Assembly (NCBI GenBank): GCA_965261595.1
Contig: CBDHDG010000006.1
Span: 960,001 to 1,024,000, forward strand
Reading direction: 5' to 3'
Source: a bacterium
Lineage (GTDB): Bacteria; UBA8248; JACPRG01; G963555815
DNA length: 64,000 bases
Shown: in pieces, positions 12,274-19,150 of the stretch
How positions within the stretch are numbered: the first letter of the stretch is position 1
Layout of the letters: every line of letters starts with the position of its first letter
The notes under the pieces: generated by a model
What the model saw: only the letters and a program-made list of their open reading frames with translations
The model's database searches: none
What the model was told of the DNA's origin: nothing
Made by a program: the position numbers and the translations under genes

Positions 12274-12305
12274 TTGACTCCGTACCCGACTCCGGGGATT
12301 ATCTT
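12274..12305 (+). promoter_or_regulatory. MerR-type promoter/operator (merOP-like)
   Basis: TTGACT-CCGTACCCGACTCCGGGGAT-TATCTT. The -35 box and left half-site match Tn21/Tn501 PmerT (TTGACTCCGTAC). Long 19-20 bp spacer with an imperfect CCGTAC-N4-CTCCGG dyad. Confidence 0.85.
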
Positions 12306-12366: not shown

Positions 12367-12612
12367 ATGGAACAGAAAGAGGTTACCCTATACACATCGA
12401 GCTTGTGAGCGTCTTGCAGAGGCGTGAAAGAGTTTCTTTCACATCACAGCATTCCCTACCAGGAGCACTTGATCGACCAAGACCAGGAAGCGATGAACAC
12501 CTTGGTTGAGAAAACCGGACGCAAAGCCACTCCCGTGCTTCTCATTGGCGAGGAAACCGTGGTGGGCTTTGACCGTCGAAAAATCTCGGACCTTTTGGAG
12601 ATTGGTCGATGA
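12367..12612 (+). CDS. Glutaredoxin/NrdH-like predicted selenoprotein (UxxC)
   Basis: MEQKEVTLYTSSL-U-ASC-RGVKEFL...TGRKATPVLLIG..VVGFD. In-frame TGA at 12406-12408 replaces the first Cys of CxxC. RBS present; SECIS-like hairpin follows. Confidence 0.88.
12424..12442 (+). promoter_or_regulatory. Candidate bacterial SECIS element
   Basis: Perfect 8-bp stem GTGAAAGA-GTT-TCTTTCAC starting 15 nt after the TGA; loop begins with G. Confidence 0.7.
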
Positions 12613-12968
12613 ACGCTTCAGAGCGAAGGCTCCGCTGCCCTGGCTGCGAAATGGACATTCCAGTCCCGTGGGACGCCAAGAACGGCGACGTTACTGAGTG
12701 TGAGAACTGCGCGGGTGTTCTGTTTCGCCTCTCCGAACAGGACGGCGGGGACATCCTGCGGCTCGTGCTGCTTGTCTCGTGTCCTTTCTGCGAGGAGACA
12801 ATCCCGGTGGACGATAACACGCCCGAGGGGACCGTCATTCGTCACGGGGGGGCGGAATTTTCGCTGACGAAGGAGTTCGGCGCTTTCTCGCTGGAGCTCG
12901 CCGGCGGCCAAAGACCCGGCCTGGTTCCGGCAGCGGACGCGGACAAAGCGCGAGGGACGGCAGGTTGA
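12609..12968 (+). CDS. Small Cys-rich tandem zinc-ribbon-like protein
   Basis: CPGC...CENC...CPFC...H. First half resembles the LysW-type ribbon but lacks the EDWGE tail. ATGA overlap with the glutaredoxin gene. Confidence 0.7.
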   Translation: MNASERRLRCPGCEMDIPVPWDAKNGDVTECENCAGVLFRLSEQDGGDILRLVLLVSCPFCEETIPVDDNTPEGTVIRHGGAEFSLTKEFGAFSLELAGGQRPGLVPAADADKARGTAG

Positions 12969-13267
12969 AGCCGCAAAGATCAATCACGGGAAAAATCATG
13001 CTGGGCGCGGCCTTCTTTCTGTGCCCCTGCCACCTGCCCATCTACCTGGCCCTGTTGGGCGGAACGGCCGCGGGCGCGCTGCTCTCCGAGAACGCGTACA
13101 CCGCCGGGGCCGTCCTGGCCCTCGCGTTCCTCGCGGCGCTCGTTCTGGGGTTGCGCATGCCGGGGAAGAACATTTCCAAGGCCGGGGCCGCCTCGGAGCG
13201 GGACCCATCCGATACCGGAGGGCAACCTCTCCGGCACGGTCGAATCCGGCGGGCGCCCCTTGGATGA
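12965..13267 (+). CDS. merE: MerE-like mercury transporter
   Basis: LCPCHLPIYLALLGGTAAGALLSE matches MerE (TCPCHLPIL...AGTTAGAFLGE). Two TM segments. Start could be the ATG at 12998. Confidence 0.8.
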   Translation: MKPQRSITGKIMLGAAFFLCPCHLPIYLALLGGTAAGALLSENAYTAGAVLALAFLAALVLGLRMPGKNISKAGAASERDPSDTGGQPLRHGRIRRAPLG

Positions 13268-13279
13268 GGGAGAATCGCG

Positions 13280-13618
13280 TTGCGCTTGAAAGAGGTATTT
13301 CCCGGAGCGGCCGGCGTCCTGACTTCCTTGGGGGCCTCCATCTGCTGCCTCCTCCCGCTCGCGGTGATTTACCTGGGACTCGGAACGGGATCCTTCATGG
13401 CAACGACCATGAAGTACCGCCCCATCGTATTTCCATTGGGGGTGATCGGCCTCGGCGCCGGTTACTTCCTTTACTTCCGGGAGCGAAAACGCTGTCGACG
13501 CGTGGCGTGCAGAATGGCGGGCTCCAAAATCAACCTGGCCTTGCTGGCGGCGGCGACGATCATCATGGCGGGTGTCGTGTGGGCCGATTTCTTCTCGGGC
13601 GTCCTGGCCATGATGTGA
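13280..13618 (+). CDS. merT: MerT-like mercury transporter
   Basis: LGASICCLLPL TM1 Cys pair, YRP, cytoplasmic CRRVAC pair, three TM helices. Confidence 0.82.
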   Translation: MRLKEVFPGAAGVLTSLGASICCLLPLAVIYLGLGTGSFMATTMKYRPIVFPLGVIGLGAGYFLYFRERKRCRRVACRMAGSKINLALLAAATIIMAGVVWADFFSGVLAMM

Positions 13619-13635: not shown

Positions 13636-13968
13636 ATGTCAGGCGTGCATCGTCCGTGGAATGGGTTGAAATGTGTGGTTCTGGCGGCCGTCTTCGCCAT
13701 GGCGCTCGGCGGGTGCGAAGGAGACCCGGTTCCATCGGCCGAAGCCGGGGAGCGGGTGACTCTGAGGGTTTCGGGGATGACGTGAGGCGCCTGAGCGGTC
13801 ACCGCGAAACCAGCCTTGGAAAGGCTGGATGGAGTGAGAAAAGCCCGGGTGAGCCTCTCGAAGGGAGAGGCGTACGTCACGTATGACCCAAGCCGGGTCA
13901 CGGTGGCGCAGATGATTGCGGCCATCAACCGCCTGGGGTTCAAAGGCGGCATGAAAGAAGGATCGTAG
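13636..13968 (+). CDS. MerP-like HMA lipoprotein with two predicted selenocysteines (GMT-U-GA-U)
   Basis: Signal peptide with LGGC lipobox, then VTLRVSGMT-TGA(13783)-GGC-GCC-TGA(13792)-AVTAKPALERLDGVRKARVSLSKGEAYVTYDPSRVTVAQMIAAINRLGFK. Read-through gives a complete HMA fold, in the merP position after merT. Confidence 0.88.
13810..13828 (+). promoter_or_regulatory. Candidate bacterial SECIS element
   Basis: Perfect 8-bp stem CCAGCCTT-GGA-AAGGCTGG starting 15 nt after the second TGA; loop begins with G. Confidence 0.72.
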
Positions 13969-14073
13969 GCGGGCCTCGATGGGTCCGCGGAGAGGATTTC
14001 CGCTGATCGGATACGGCCGATGGTCCGGGTGGTCTCCTTCGGCCGGGATACGTTGAGTGGGGGCATGGACAAT

Positions 14074-14301
14074 ATGGAAGATAGAAAGCTGCTTCGCACG
14101 GGAGGCGCGGGGACGGTTGTTGCCGCGATTTGCTGTTTCACGCCGGCCCTCGTCCTGCTGTTCGGGGTGATGGGTCTATCGGCCTGGGTCGGTTGGCTGG
14201 ATTACGTCCTTTGGCCCGCGCTTGTGATATTTGCCGGAATGACGGTCTATGCCCTTATCCGGCTGAGGAAGAAACCATCCGTCCACCGCAAAGGGACCTG
14301 A
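14074..14301 (+). CDS. merF: MerF mercury transporter
   Basis: KLLRTG..GTVVAAICCFTPALVLLFG..GLSA..GWLDYVL.PAL..F matches MerF. Start 14065 or 14074. Confidence 0.88.
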   Translation: MEDRKLLRTGGAGTVVAAICCFTPALVLLFGVMGLSAWVGWLDYVLWPALVIFAGMTVYALIRLRKKPSVHRKGT

Positions 14302-14802
14302 TTCAAAGAAAGGCCGAATAATGAGGTTTTGGTCTTTTCTTCTTTCCATCAAGACACATCTCCCTTCGCCAAGACCAAAACTTTCCTCGCGAGCCGATCA
14401 AACCAATAGTTGAGGGGTCCAAGATGGCTGAGTCCTTGCGTTCCAAAGAGGGTTCCTTGACATTGATTGCCTTGATCGCGGGAGGGGTCTTGCCACTCCT
14501 GATCGTTTTTGGCTCCGCCCGTCTACTGCCCATGCCGACCCTTTTCTGGGCTGTCGGCGTCCCGGCGGAAATCGTTCTTTTTGGGGTTCTGCTCTACGCT
14601 CGTTCGGCCGGACCGGAGCGCTTGTATCGGAGGCTTTGGGTGGGGTGATCGGCGGCGTATTGCTCACCTTGTCATTGGATGCCGTCCGAACCGCAGGGGT
14701 CAACATCGGTTACCTTCCGGATTCCGTGTCGATGTTCGGGCGCTTGGAGTTGACCCGGTTTGGTGGACACCTGATGATTTGGGGGTAAAGGAGGTGTTCA
14801 CG

Positions 14803-15117
14803 ATGCCACAGACTCACCCACGCTATCCAATGGAGTTCCGCTGCCAGATGGTAGAGTTGGTCCGGGCGGGACGCACGCCCGAGGCGCTGGCGCACGAGTT
14901 CGAGCCCTCGGCGCAGACGATCCGCACCTGGGCCCATCAAGCCGACGTTGACGAGGGGCGTCGCAAAGACGGGCTCACGAGCGATGAGCGGGAGGAGTTG
15001 CGCCGACTTCGCCGCGAGAACCGACAGCTCCGCCAGGAGCGGGAGATCTTAGCAAAAGCCGCGGCCTGGTTTGCTCGGGAGACCGATTCGATCCCGTCCG
15101 GATCTACGGGTTCGTGA
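14803..15117 (+). CDS. IS3 transposase OrfA
   Basis: YPMEFRCQMVELV...TIRTW...LRRENRQLRQEREIL.KAAAWFA. Confidence 0.9.
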   Translation: MPQTHPRYPMEFRCQMVELVRAGRTPEALAHEFEPSAQTIRTWAHQADVDEGRRKDGLTSDEREELRRLRRENRQLRQEREILAKAAAWFARETDSIPSGSTGS

Positions 15118-15965
15118 GGGCGAACCAGGCCATGTATCGGACCGCCACCATGTGCCGGGTGCTGGGCGTCTCCTCCAGCGGCTACTACGCGTGGCGCAGG
15201 CGCGCGCCGTGTGCCCGCTCGTGTGCCGATCGGGCGCTCACCAAACGCATTCAGGCGATCCACGAGCGTTCTCGGGGGACTTACGGCGTGCCGCGCGTCC
15301 ATGCCGAGTTGGAGGCTGAGGGAGTGCGTGTGGGCCGCAAGCGCGTCGCCAGGCTGATGCGTGGGGCGGGACTTGCGGGCGTCAGTCGGCGCAAGGGAGC
15401 GCGCACGACGCAGCGCCGGCAGGAGGCGCGGCCGGCCCCTGATCTGGTGGACCGCAACTTCACGGCCGAGGCCCCCGACCGGCTGTGGGTGGCCGACATC
15501 ACCTACGTTCCGACATGGGCGGGGTTTTTGTATCTGGCCGTGGCGCTCGATGCGTTCAGCCGGCGCATCGTGGGGTGGTCGATGGCCACACACCTGCGGG
15601 CCGAGTTGGTGCTCGACGCGCTCGACATGGCGCTGTACAAGCGCCGTCCCCGGGCCGTCATCCACCACTCCGACCAGGGCAGCACGCAGTACACCTCGGT
15701 CGCCTTTGGGCAGCGCTGCCGGCAGGCGGGCGTGCGTCCCTCCATGGGTTCGGTCGGGGACTGCTACGACAACGCGCTGTGTGAGAGCTTTTTCGCCACG
15801 CTGGAGTGCGAGCTCCTCGCTCGCCACAGTTTCCGCACCCGGGCCGAGGCGCGCATGGAGGTGTTCGGGTTCATCGAGGGCTTCTACAACCCGCATCGTC
15901 GGCACTCCTCCATCGACAACCTGTCACCCGTTAACTACGAAAGGAGACAACAACGCACACCCTGA
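15114..15965 (+). CDS. IS3 transposase OrfB (DDE)
   Basis: WVADITY, HHSDQG..QY, DNALCESFF, YNPHRRHS. Confidence 0.93.
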   Translation: MRANQAMYRTATMCRVLGVSSSGYYAWRRRAPCARSCADRALTKRIQAIHERSRGTYGVPRVHAELEAEGVRVGRKRVARLMRGAGLAGVSRRKGARTTQRRQEARPAPDLVDRNFTAEAPDRLWVADITYVPTWAGFLYLAVALDAFSRRIVGWSMATHLRAELVLDALDMALYKRRPRAVIHHSDQGSTQYTSVAFGQRCRQAGVRPSMGSVGDCYDNALCESFFATLECELLARHSFRTRAEARMEVFGFIEGFYNPHRRHSSIDNLSPVNYERRQQRTP

Positions 15966-16289
15966 AAACCCAAGTGCTTAACTCTCCACGAAACCGGGGT
16001 AAGTCCATTGCGTTTGGAGTGGTCTATTCAATCCTTTTTGGAAAGACCCGATGGTGGGGCGCCGTGCTTTATAGCGTCTTCTTTGTAGAGCTTGGCATGA
16101 TGACCCTTCCACCGATGGCGAAAATGATGGGACCTTTCGGCGTCAACAAGTTCGGCACAATTTGGAACGGGATGTTCATAACCACATTGCTCGCTCACGC
16201 CGCGATGGGGGTTGTGCTCGGTGTTGTGATTCAGAAGTGGGGAAAGCACCCCGGTTTGTTTTTCTCAAGTAGAAGCATAGGCGCGTAGT

Positions 16290-16538
16290 GTGGTGCTATC
16301 GGAACTTCATATCGAGGGCATGACGTGACCCAAGTGCGTCAAACGGGTCCGTGAGTCCCTGAAAAAATCCCCGGGAGTTCAGGACGTCCAAGTTTCTTTG
16401 GAGACGGGACGGGCCGTTATTTGGATGAAAAAAGGAAGCCTACCCACAGAGGACCTCCTCGAACAGGTGGTGGAAGCGGCCAAAGGCGCCTTCCATTCCT
16501 ACGTCGCCCGCTGGGTTAAACCCCCCTCTTCGAATTAA
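16290..16538 (+). CDS. Cytoplasmic HMA-domain predicted selenoprotein (GMT-U-PK-C)
   Basis: GTG start; LSELHIEGMT-TGA(16326)-PKCVKRVRESLKKSPGVQDVQVSLETGRAVI... to TAA. A CopZ/NmerA-like fold after read-through. Not in the ORF track. Confidence 0.82.
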
Positions 16539-16687
16539 GCCGCATCCGCTGATTCGGAGAGTCATCAGCACCAAATCCCGAACCCTTTTCGGACTCCACG
16601 CAGATGAGACAATCAGAGAGACCCCGGCTGTCATCCAATGCTCCTCGAAGCCGATCTGGATTTTGAGGGAAGCGTTTGGAGAGCGAC

Positions 16688-18044
16688 ATGGCTTTAAAGT
16701 CATACGACCTCATCGTCATCGGAACGGGGTCTGCGGCCTCTGCGGCAGCATCCGAATGCCGCACCGCCGGGTGGACCGTGGCGGTTATCGATTCCCGTCC
16801 TTACGGGGGGACATGCGCCCTGCGCGGCTGCGACCCCAAGAAGGTGCTCGTCGCCGCGGCCGAGGCCCTCCACTGGGGGCATCGCTTGAGGGGCCGCGGG
16901 GTTCGTCCCGGCGATGCGCGGATCGACTGGCCCGAGTTGATGGACTTCAAGCGCACGTTCACCGAATCCGTGGCGCAGAGCCACGAGCGGTGGTTCGCCG
17001 AAGTCGGGATCGACGGATACCACGGGCGGGCGAAGTTTATCGGCCCCGTCTCTGTTCAAGTCGGCGGCGACGATCTGGAGGCCAAACACGTCTTCATCGC
17101 CTCCGGCGCCATGCCGGCCAGGCTCGGGATCCCGGGAGAAGGGCATCTGATCGCGAGCGAAGACTTCCTTGAGCTGGACGAGCTGCCGGAGCGTATCGTT
17201 TTCGTGGGGGGCGGCTACATCTCCATGGAGTTCGCGACCGTTTCCGTCTGCGCCGGAGCTGAGGTCACCGTCCTTCACCGGGGTCCGCGACTCCTGCGTG
17301 GATTCGATCCCGGCTCGGCGGACTTGGTCGCGGAGGCGGCTCGCGGGAGCGGCATCGACCTGAAGTTGGAGACTCGGGTCGAAAGCATAACAAAGACTGC
17401 CGGCGGCTTTGTCGTTGAGGCATCCTCACCCGCGGGATCGCAAACGGTTGAAGCCGACTTGGTGGTGCACGGCGCCGGTCGGGTGGCTGAGATTGAGGAT
17501 CTCGACCTGGGAGCGGCCGGCGTGGAGCGGGGGAAGCGGGGAGTATTGGTGAACGAGTATCTGCAAAGCACCTCGAATCCGGCGGTCTATGCAGCGGGAG
17601 ACGCGGCGCGAAACGGAAGGACAGCCTCTCACGCCCGTGGCAGGGGTCGAAGGAGGGGTTGTGGCAGCAAATCTATTAAATGGGAACAAAGTTAAGCCTG
17701 ATTACACCGGAACGGCAACAGTGGCATTCACATTGCCGCCGATTGCCGCGGTGGGACTGAGAGAAGATGAAGCCAGGAAGAAGGGGCTCAAGTTTCAGGT
17801 GAATTTCCAGGACACGTCTGGATGGTATTCGACACGGCGCATGGGCGAGAAATACTCGGCATCCAAGGTGTTGGTCGAGGAAGACACGGGGCGGCTGCTC
17901 GGTGCGCACCTCCTCGGGCCGTCTGCGGATGAGCTGATCAACCTCTTTGCGCTTGCCATCCGCCACGGTCTCACCGCCGAGGGTCTAAAGGAGGTGATCT
18001 TCGCGTATCCGACGCACGCGTCTGACGTGGGTTATATGGTCTGA
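16688..18044 (+). pseudogene. Class I pyridine nucleotide-disulfide oxidoreductase (glutathione-reductase-like), frameshifted near 17608
   Basis: YDLIVIGTGSA, GGTCALRGCDPKK, GGGYI, VYAAGD in one frame, then QPLTPVA...GAHLLG...YPTHASD in another. The single extra base may be real or an assembly error. Confidence 0.85.
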
Positions 18045-18100
18045 AGAGCACGCCCTTTGTCCAATTTCGTGATGAGAAAGGGTCATTTGGGAGATGTCAA

Positions 18101-18717
18101 ATGGAAACCTCAAAATTGCCTCAGCTCAGAGAGCATTTCAATCAGGCATGCGATTCCGTGAGGGTTCTTACAATCCTCTCTCCTACCTAACCCGTATGTC
18201 ACTACGGGCATGGAGTTGTCCGGAAGCTCTTCGAGGAGATTGACGCGAATGCGCTCAAGGGTTTTTCAATATGGCTTCCCATCATGGACGGGGACAACGC
18301 CGATGCCGCGAGGGCCGAATCAGAGAATTTCCCGGATGAACGGGTAGAGCACAGTTGGGATTCCGAAGGACAATTTGGCCGGCTCTTTGCGAAGTTTCTC
18401 AATTTGAAAGGTGTCGCGTGGGATGTTCACTTGCTCTACGCGCCGGGTGTCACCTGGGGTGTGGATGAGCCGCCCAAACCTGCATTCTGGATGCACCAAC
18501 TTCCTCCAGTAACGGGAGCCGATGGGAAACTTCTTTGAACCCAGGTAGATTTTCACACGAGCTGATGAATCTCCTTGGAAGAGAGGATCCGCATATGGCT
18601 TGGGATATGGCCTTTATGTTGCACGTTGGCGGTATTGGCGGGGTCATGAGGGAGAGGGCTCAGTCTTCACTGGAAGAGGTCCTCAAGGCCGTCGATCCTA
18701 CGAAGGAAGGACCGTGA
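18101..18717 (+). pseudogene. Thioredoxin-fold protein with TAA at the predicted Sec position (SPT*PVC) and a frameshift near 18535
   Basis: METSKLPQLREHFN...VRVLTILSPT-TAA(18188)-PVCHYG... is in frame with the 18284 ORF (WLPIM...WDVHLLY...W...PAFWMHQL). The C-terminus continues in a shifted frame. Confidence 0.7.
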
Positions 18718-18721
18718 ATCG

Positions 18722-19150
18722 ATGAAGAATTGCCCGGAGGTTCCTATGGAATCCTTGACGATCGAAAAGGTCGCCCGCGGGGCGGGTGTGAACGTCGAGA
18801 CGGTTCGCTACTACGAGCGCAGGGGGCTGATCGAGCGGCCAACCAGCCGGCGGGGGGCTTACCGGGTCTATCCGTCCGAGACCGTCGGCCGCATCCTGAG
18901 CATCAAGCGCGCCCAGCGGCTCGGGTTCTCCCTGGATGAGATCAAAGAGCTGTTGGCCATGCGATCGGACGCCCGGGCCCGGTGCGGCGACGTGCGCGTC
19001 CAGGCCGAGCGGAAGATGGCCGAGATTGAGGAGAAGATCAAGGCCCTGCGGGCCGTGAAGAAATCGCTCGGCAAGCTCGCCGACGCCTGCCGGAGGGAGC
19101 TGCCTGTGACGGAGTGCCCGATTCTGAAAAACCTGAGCGGGGTTTCCTGA
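18722..19150 (+). CDS. merR: MerR-family metal-responsive regulator
   Basis: LTI..VA..AGVNVETVRYYERRGL, IKRAQRLGFSLDEIKELL. Three Cys (RCGD, ACRR, ECPIL) at Hg-MerR-like positions. Start could be 18746. Confidence 0.88.
   Translation: MKNCPEVPMESLTIEKVARGAGVNVETVRYYERRGLIERPTSRRGAYRVYPSETVGRILSIKRAQRLGFSLDEIKELLAMRSDARARCGDVRVQAERKMAEIEEKIKALRAVKKSLGKLADACRRELPVTECPILKNLSGVS

Follow-up and report, generated by a model that had tools for sequence, protein, structure and literature searches.

A predicted double-selenocysteine, MerP-like lipoprotein in a bacterial mercury gene cassette

The window analyzed here, a 64,000-nucleotide stretch of a bacterial genome (G000), carries a selenium-rich mercury cluster inserted among housekeeping genes. 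The cluster runs in the order Sec-glutaredoxin, double zinc ribbon, merE, merT, a gene with two in-frame TGA codons (the UxxU gene), merF, a membrane gene interrupted by an insertion sequence, a second HMA gene, a reductase, a UxxC-type frame, and merR. The UxxU gene (13636-13968, +) encodes a predicted MerP-like HMA lipoprotein of 110 aa with Sec50 and Sec53. Its upstream neighbors are a glutaredoxin-like selenoprotein of the UxxC type (12367-12612, +), with a TGA at 12406-12408 and its own hairpin 23 nt downstream; a Cys-rich double zinc-ribbon (LysW-like) protein (12609-12968, +); a MerE-like membrane protein (12965-13267, +), which scores over the cut-off of the Pfam MerE model and below that of NCBIfam; and a Cys-only MerT-like membrane protein (13280-13618, +) with a CC pair and a CxxxxC motif, matched by MerT models below cut-off. 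Downstream lie the mercury transporter MerF (14065-14301, +; NF033565, 94 bits, cut-off 50), a signal-less second HMA protein of the UxxC type (16290-16538, +; TGA at 16326-16328), a GbsMerA-type short flavoprotein reductase that is frameshifted near 17610 (16688-18044, +; best PDB match 8K40, E 3.7e-75), and a MerR-family regulator (18722-19150, +), whose best model is MerR at 128.8 bits (cut-off 150.85). No simple hairpin of at least 5 bp was found for the second HMA gene. In the glutaredoxin gene, the UxxC TGA and a nearly invariant hairpin 23 nt 3′ of it are present in the window and in 5/5 relatives (L241, L245, L249, L250, L251). The zinc-ribbon protein of G024 and G040 has a CPxU motif in which TGA replaces the second Cys codon, with a hairpin 20 nt downstream (L249:7362-7703(-), L251:2613-2957(+)), and is a candidate zinc-ribbon selenoprotein.

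A MerR-type promoter (12274-12304, +) precedes the cluster and comprises a -35 element TTGACT, a 19-bp spacer holding the operator, and a -10-like TTATCT. The operator, TCCGTAC-N4-CTCCGGG, has a perfect left half-site TCCGTAC (12279-12285) and a right half-site that agrees at 4/7 positions. According to the portion of PMC1526738 available to us, the MerR (mercury) signal is TCCGTAC-4-GTACGGA within a 19-bp spacer and is distinct from that of ZntR; the corresponding portion of PMC11049809 agrees. The arrangement of -35 and CCGTAC lies upstream of 6/6 cassettes (window, G003, G008, G024, G040, and G044), and the right half-site is nearly perfect in several of them. No MerR-type operator was found in the 300 bases 5′ of merA in G045 or of merT in G056. 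The operator and the mer genes on both sides lend weight to the MerP-like role proposed for the UxxU protein in the initial annotation. A MerA over cut-off is absent from the 14 matches in G000 (genome 96.7% complete), and the search for MerB gave no match anywhere, controls included, and so carries no information. Contigs of a related strain from an RNA-library run (X15) cover the glutaredoxin gene, merE, and merT-merP-merF, with none over 16197-18365; such contigs cannot show transcription.

The UxxU gene follows immediately on a Shine-Dalgarno-like GGGGGAAG and reads MSGVH...ALGGC...RVSGMT-TGA-GA-TGA-AVTAK...EGS-TAG. The two TGA codons, at 13783-13785 (residue 50) and 13792-13794 (residue 53), occupy both Cys positions of the HMA motif GMTCxxC and would form a U-G-A-U metal site (13783-13794, +) within GMT-x-x-x-x; from the second TGA the frame continues for 57 codons to TAG. 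A product ended at the first TGA would comprise the signal peptide and one strand only. That both motif cysteines are TGA and that the fold continues to the TAG, as first noticed from the letters, is borne out by the frame, by a Pfam HMA match over the read-through protein, and by independent contigs. The sequence check covered 4 of 24 runs (X5, X7, X10, and X15) from 4 studies, as assembled contigs rather than raw reads. The X7 and X10 contigs, from two other studies, cover the whole gene, and their differences from the window (5/5 and 6/6 listed) include none at the TGAs; for X15, with 20/30 differences listed, none of those falls there. X5 shows no A>T change relative to the window, and its sole A>C is at 17711; therefore, it has neither TGC nor TGT at these codons. 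The TGC or TGT that would have undone the proposal was thus looked for in contigs and is absent from X5, X7, and X10. Sequencing error at the TGAs is ruled out by the contigs of other studies. A changed genetic code (TGA as Trp or Gly) is likewise ruled out: TGA is the most frequent stop in the genome, closing 937/1470 of the stop-free stretches of at least 500 codons, and the sole tRNA with a TCA anticodon is tRNA-Sec. The recoding is therefore local and site-specific.

The initial annotation had judged two independent nonsense mutations at exactly these codons unlikely, and the comparisons side with it. The TGA pair is kept in X7 and X10 as well as in G003 and G045, which belong to other genera. 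Against the G003 orthologue, dN/dS is 0.134/0.425 (about 0.3) 3′ of the TGAs and 0.119/0.512 3′ of the hairpin described below, values indicating that the codons downstream of both TGAs are under purifying selection. When the protein is read with Cys at both positions, 25/25 protein matches carry GMT-CxxC; a related-locus search with the same Cys-read protein returned Cys-type genes, with no TGA at the motif among the matches listed.

The genome encodes SelA, SelB, and SelD over cut-off as well as tRNA-Sec(TCA), and its selD itself has one in-frame TGA. Across the phylum, selA is over cut-off in 49/51 genomes, among them each of the 12 that carry a double-TGA HMA gene. Downstream of the TGAs lies a SECIS-like hairpin (13810-13828, +) of 8 bp with a GGA loop at 13818-13820, 32 nt from the first UGA and 23 nt from the second. 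Its folding energy is -12.4 kcal/mol, with z = -3.2 for 13800-13845 and 1/200 shuffles as stable. The bSECIS model, as given in the accessible part of PMC13188914, calls for a 3-9 nt loop with G in the first two places, a 4-16 bp stem, a distance of 16-37 nt from the UGA, and an MFE <= -7.5 kcal/mol; the hairpin lies within all of these bounds for both UGAs. In 14 homologous stretches (the window, 12 from relatives, and 1 metagenome locus; one of them UxxC), 94.6% of 112 cells are paired and 6/8 pairs have changed on both sides. The covariation value is 0.659 vs 0.327 when shuffled (0/500), with 0.257 for the best slid control, and leans high because the window supplied the structure and the aligned sequences are relatives of one another.

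Whether such a stem accompanies the TGAs was also counted over all loci except L182, among which the low-scoring rows L128 and L138 may be spurious. At the fixed place, a stem of at least 6 bp occurs in 0/177 CxxC HMA genes vs 8/9 UxxxU and 4/66 UxxU genes; the 3 UxxU genes of the phylum have such a stem. A G-loop hairpin of at least 6 bp anywhere in range occurs in 27/177 CxxC, 9/9 UxxxU, and 65/66 UxxU genes. The 66 UxxU sequences are not independent, because most belong to one tight clade (GMT-U-NF-U), whose hairpin sits 9 nt further downstream than in the window gene, 32 nt from the second UGA and 41 nt from the first, the latter outside the bSECIS range. The clade itself (L121, L137, and most UxxU loci among L121-L240) is large and consists of exported proteins of about 170 aa; the L121 protein scores 36 bits, far below the cut-off of the NF041115 family model. 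The possibility that the hairpin is merely forced by the encoded peptide was tried with synonymous shuffling and with CxxC genes, and was rejected: 15-393 of 4000 shuffles per sequence match the observed stem (44/4000 for the window), while the count of 0/177 in CxxC genes is a weak control because only 1/177 of these shares the A/V-L-E-x-L peptide. Together with the conserved TGAs, the Sec machinery, and a dN/dS of about 0.3, these observations back the two Sec residues first proposed for the protein, and selenocysteine is almost certainly inserted at both UGA codons.

The read-through protein aligns with Pfam HMA over 62/62 positions (E 2e-14). An AlphaFold2 model built from a 21-row alignment shows strands and helices in the HMA order, beta-alpha-beta-beta-alpha-beta, at a pLDDT of 93-96 across residues 41-100, and superposes on solved MerP and CopZ domains at about 1 Å rmsd (Foldseek). 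The best structural matches are divided among MerP, CopZ, and Cu-ATPase domains. Scored with Cys in place of Sec, residues 39-106 match NF041115 (UxxU_metal_bind) at 98.1 bits (cut-off 95); a genome search in which the TGAs are scored as stops gives 84.8 bits. The G003 orthologue scores 99.3 and the G045 protein 94.6 bits, while UxxxU-spaced relatives score 69-76 bits, below the cut-off. On the classical MerP model TIGR02052 the protein reaches 60.6 bits (cut-off 92.55), and CopZ models are about as close as MerP. Since it falls below the TIGR02052 cut-off, it is classed as MerP-like in function and not as a MerP member; it shares with MerP that its HMA domain is exported and that its gene accompanies merT under predicted MerR control. 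The protein is a new member of the catalogued NF041115 family, so its kind is not new. The rarity initially ascribed to UxxU motifs was overstated: NF041115 is curated, two reviews list UxxU, and double-Sec HMA genes occur in 12/51 phylum genomes.

The N-terminus (13636-13716, +; pattern and hydropathy) consists of a positive N-region, a hydrophobic H-region, and a lipobox with a +1 Cys. In AAVFAMALGG-C27 the predicted lipidated Cys27 (13714-13716) comes after the hydrophobic stretch and fits the Prosite-type lipobox pattern, which ends at Cys27 in both the window and G003. The corresponding sequence of the G003 orthologue is VAGG-C27, and in the X15 strain the Cys27 codon is changed synonymously only. 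Both the pattern match and its retention in the orthologue speak for the lipoprotein signal (LGGC) seen in the initial annotation, and lipidation at Cys27 is likely. The lipobox is not general, since the signal peptides of G045 and of four f2/g5 genomes lack such a Cys.

Several parts of the cassette are broken or variable in this strain. The frameshift near 17610 is shared, as X5, X7, and X10 show no differing indel there; the GbsMerA-type reductase is intact in G008. A transposase-bearing insertion element at 14746-16005, which we take to be IS3-like from its motifs, interrupts a DUF6789-like membrane gene; it is absent from X7, X10, and X15, and the membrane gene is whole in G003. The frame at 18101-18538 (+) contains an LSPT-x-PVC motif with TAA at 18188-18190, where X5, X7, and X10 read TGA, and has a hairpin 20 nt downstream. 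The frame probably represents another selenoprotein of the UxxC type, thioredoxin-like in its motif, that has been either inactivated or mis-called here; NCBIfam has no family for it, nor for the G003 membrane gene. All four runs compared have one extra T at 18533, so a single-base error of assembly is probable at this position of the window. Within the UxxU protein, residue 59 (helix 1) is Pro in the window and X5 and Leu in X7, X10, X15, and G003. The two-base change at 13811-13812 converts two G-U stem pairs of the hairpin to Watson-Crick pairs and makes the stem a perfect inverted repeat; it looks like a quasi-palindrome correction event. Pro59 may harm helix 1, and the cassette may be decaying in this strain. 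Elsewhere in the genome, a PRK06370-type FAD oxidoreductase at C7:11328-12697 is split in two frames by a frameshift or an assembly error.

The double-Sec HMA genes of the phylum comprise 3 UxxU (G000, G003, and G045) and 9 UxxxU genes. The initial annotation had suggested aligning homologues for UxxU, UxxC, and CxxC variation; all three occur, together with the UxxxU spacing. The G003 orthologue, from another genus, is 64% identical, keeps UxxU and the lipobox, and occupies the equivalent chromosomal position, following the mfd-aroE region. In G045 the order is merA (509.8 bits, cut-off 454.45), merT, merP(UxxU). A genome from outside the phylum, G056, carries merT, merE, a UxxC MerP, and merA (559.6 bits). 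In G008, G044, and G046 the double-Sec HMA domain is fused to MerT; MerT-HMA fusions with U-PF(T/S)-U lie at L245:6537-7160(-), L250:1890-2450(+), and L290:2642-3208(+). The L245 fusion is below the cut-offs of NF041115, NF033556, and NF045683, and G008 carries a second, free copy of the domain. The UxxxU HMA genes of G007, G010, G019, and G031 lie between unrelated genes with no mer match in the fetched stretches; therefore, the family is not always mer-linked. MerA is over cut-off in 1/51 phylum genomes, and a GbsMerA-type reductase is found in 2/51. A further HMA domain of the window genome, GMH-U-GG-C, forms the C-terminal end (C7:776426-776623; L009) of a frame of ~900 codons beside another HMA-bearing long frame; it is probably part of a Sec-containing metal ATPase-type protein.

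The best reading of these data, and one we consider moderately probable, is that of a tethered double-Sec MerP by which Hg(II) would be captured in the periplasm and delivered to MerT, MerF, or MerE. A single hairpin (13810-13828), with SelB bound, would allow both UGAs to be read as selenocysteine, and the 110-aa pre-lipoprotein would be exported and lipidated at Cys27, leaving the MerP-fold HMA domain to face the periplasm on a short linker. Hg(II) would be bound linearly between Se50 and Se53; in a cassette induced through MerR, the protein would fill the role of MerP, scavenging Hg(II) and handing it to the Cys pairs of MerT, MerF, or MerE for uptake. In the cytoplasm, mercury might be handled by the Sec-glutaredoxin, the free UxxC HMA protein, and, where intact, the GbsMerA-type reductase. 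Judged from the gene context, Hg is very plausibly the ligand, and its hand-off is rather more plausible than its retention. Hand-off from Sec to MerT would be thermodynamically uphill because Hg prefers Se to S and the MerT here is Cys-only, yet the MerT fusions in three relatives favor delivery to the transporter over a dead end such as the very high-affinity trap that the initial annotation considered possible.

The main competing explanation, possible but unlikely, is a near-irreversible periplasmic Hg sink, which would lower Hg entry and detoxify mainly by selenium sequestration. Se-Hg bonds are stronger than S-Hg bonds, the partner MerT is Cys-only, several further Sec proteins are encoded in the cassette, and mer uptake genes without a reductase sensitize cells. 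The G000 reductase is broken, and G003, G024, G040, G044, and G046 have neither a MerA over cut-off nor a GbsMerA-type match at E 1e-55; these five are, however, fragmented MAGs (140-740 contigs, 87-100% complete), so that a missing reductase is not proof of absence. In G045 and G008 the double-Sec domain occurs together with MerT and a reductase that is intact, the fusions imply delivery, and one Hg per two Sec would make a costly sink. Doubtful, and bolder in scope, is a related view of the cassette as a selenium-based mercury system often without mercuric reductase, in which Hg is parked on selenols and not volatilized and two close UGAs are decoded from one SECIS. Such a reductase-free type would consist of MerR, Sec-glutaredoxin, zinc-ribbon protein, MerE/T/F, and a double-Sec MerP, lipid-anchored or MerT-fused.

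A role for the double-Sec protein with another soft metal (Cu(I), Ag(I), or Au) or in periplasmic redox chemistry (diselenide/selenol cycling), with the mer neighborhood incidental, appears improbable. MerP scores no better than CopZ and Cu-ATPase domains, UxxxU copies lack mer neighbors in four relatives, the soil-clade GMT-U-NF-U loci L121 and L137 adjoin putative outer-membrane-like and redoxin-like genes, and GbsMerA also reduces Ag (PMC10587081, available part). The operator, however, is MerR-type and not CueR/ZntR in 6/6 cassettes, the regulator's best model is MerR, merE, merT, and merF are neighbors, and G045 has merA-merT-merP(UxxU). Very improbable is a dead gene yielding a 49-aa stub only, whether through two nonsense mutations, assembly error, or loss of Sec insertion in the strain. 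Other cassette genes are indeed broken (the reductase frameshift, the insertion element, and the TAA at 18188), and at least one indel in the assembly, at 18533, is probably an error, but the TGAs recur in independent contigs and in orthologues of other genera, and the purifying selection after them, the covarying hairpin, and the intact Sec machinery also stand against it.

Capture and hand-off by a tethered double-Sec MerP would give the UxxU family a testable role. The family is listed under the misleading name "putative mercuric reductase", and this locus and its relatives suggest the MerP of a MerR-regulated cassette. This locus contributes the mercury context, with mer genes and a MerR-type operator, and a single covarying SECIS-like hairpin for the UxxU family. 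The protein is small and well folded, allowing direct comparison of UU, UC, and CC forms. Such work would show whether mercury bound as Se-Hg-Se is still released to a transporter that uses Cys, and whether a single bacterial SECIS suffices for two UGAs with a spacing of three or four codons. In the portion of the open-access literature covered, no experimental study was found that dealt with a MerP/HMA protein containing Sec or with one bacterial SECIS serving two UGAs.

Selenocysteine in mer transport components has been predicted before, as it is here. In the passages available, two reviews list a UxxU HMA protein as a predicted selenoprotein, "putative mercuric reductase". The NF041115 family and the window protein share UxxU at the HMA metal site, with two Sec; the label misfits the window protein, a free exported HMA domain without a reductase part, and the review passages give neither a lipobox nor a mer cassette with a MerR-type operator, both of which are present here. 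The GOS survey (PMC2398784, in the part accessible) reports a Sec-containing "Mercuric transport protein MerP" from 2 ocean-metagenome sequences with no motif given, and NF045683 describes a MerT/CopZ fusion selenoprotein, to which the window protein scores 40.3, far below the cut-off of 375. A term search of the main text of PMC1976440 (2007) gave no "UxxU" and only a MerT-type row, and the accessible part of bioRxiv 10.1101/2022.07.06.499078 mentions MerT selenoproteins and not UxxU.

Tn21/Tn501-type MerP (TIGR02052; PDB 1AFI, 1OSD) has the same HMA fold (TM 0.95 to 1OSD), and like it the UxxU protein is exported, encoded directly after merT, and preceded by a MerR-type promoter. Tn21 MerP is soluble, a cleaved form with a Cys-Cys site, whereas the window protein is predicted to be Sec-Sec with a lipobox; and unlike in Tn21/Tn501-type mer operons, no canonical MerA was found in the window genome. 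The GbsMerA operon of Gelidibacter salicanalis (PMC10587081, in the part available; PDB 8K40) is alike in that merT/P adjoin a short reductase without NmerA and the C-terminal CC, an enzyme reported to reduce Hg(II). It differs in having an ArsR regulator, whereas the window has a MerR regulator, a frameshifted reductase, and predicted Sec in the binding proteins.
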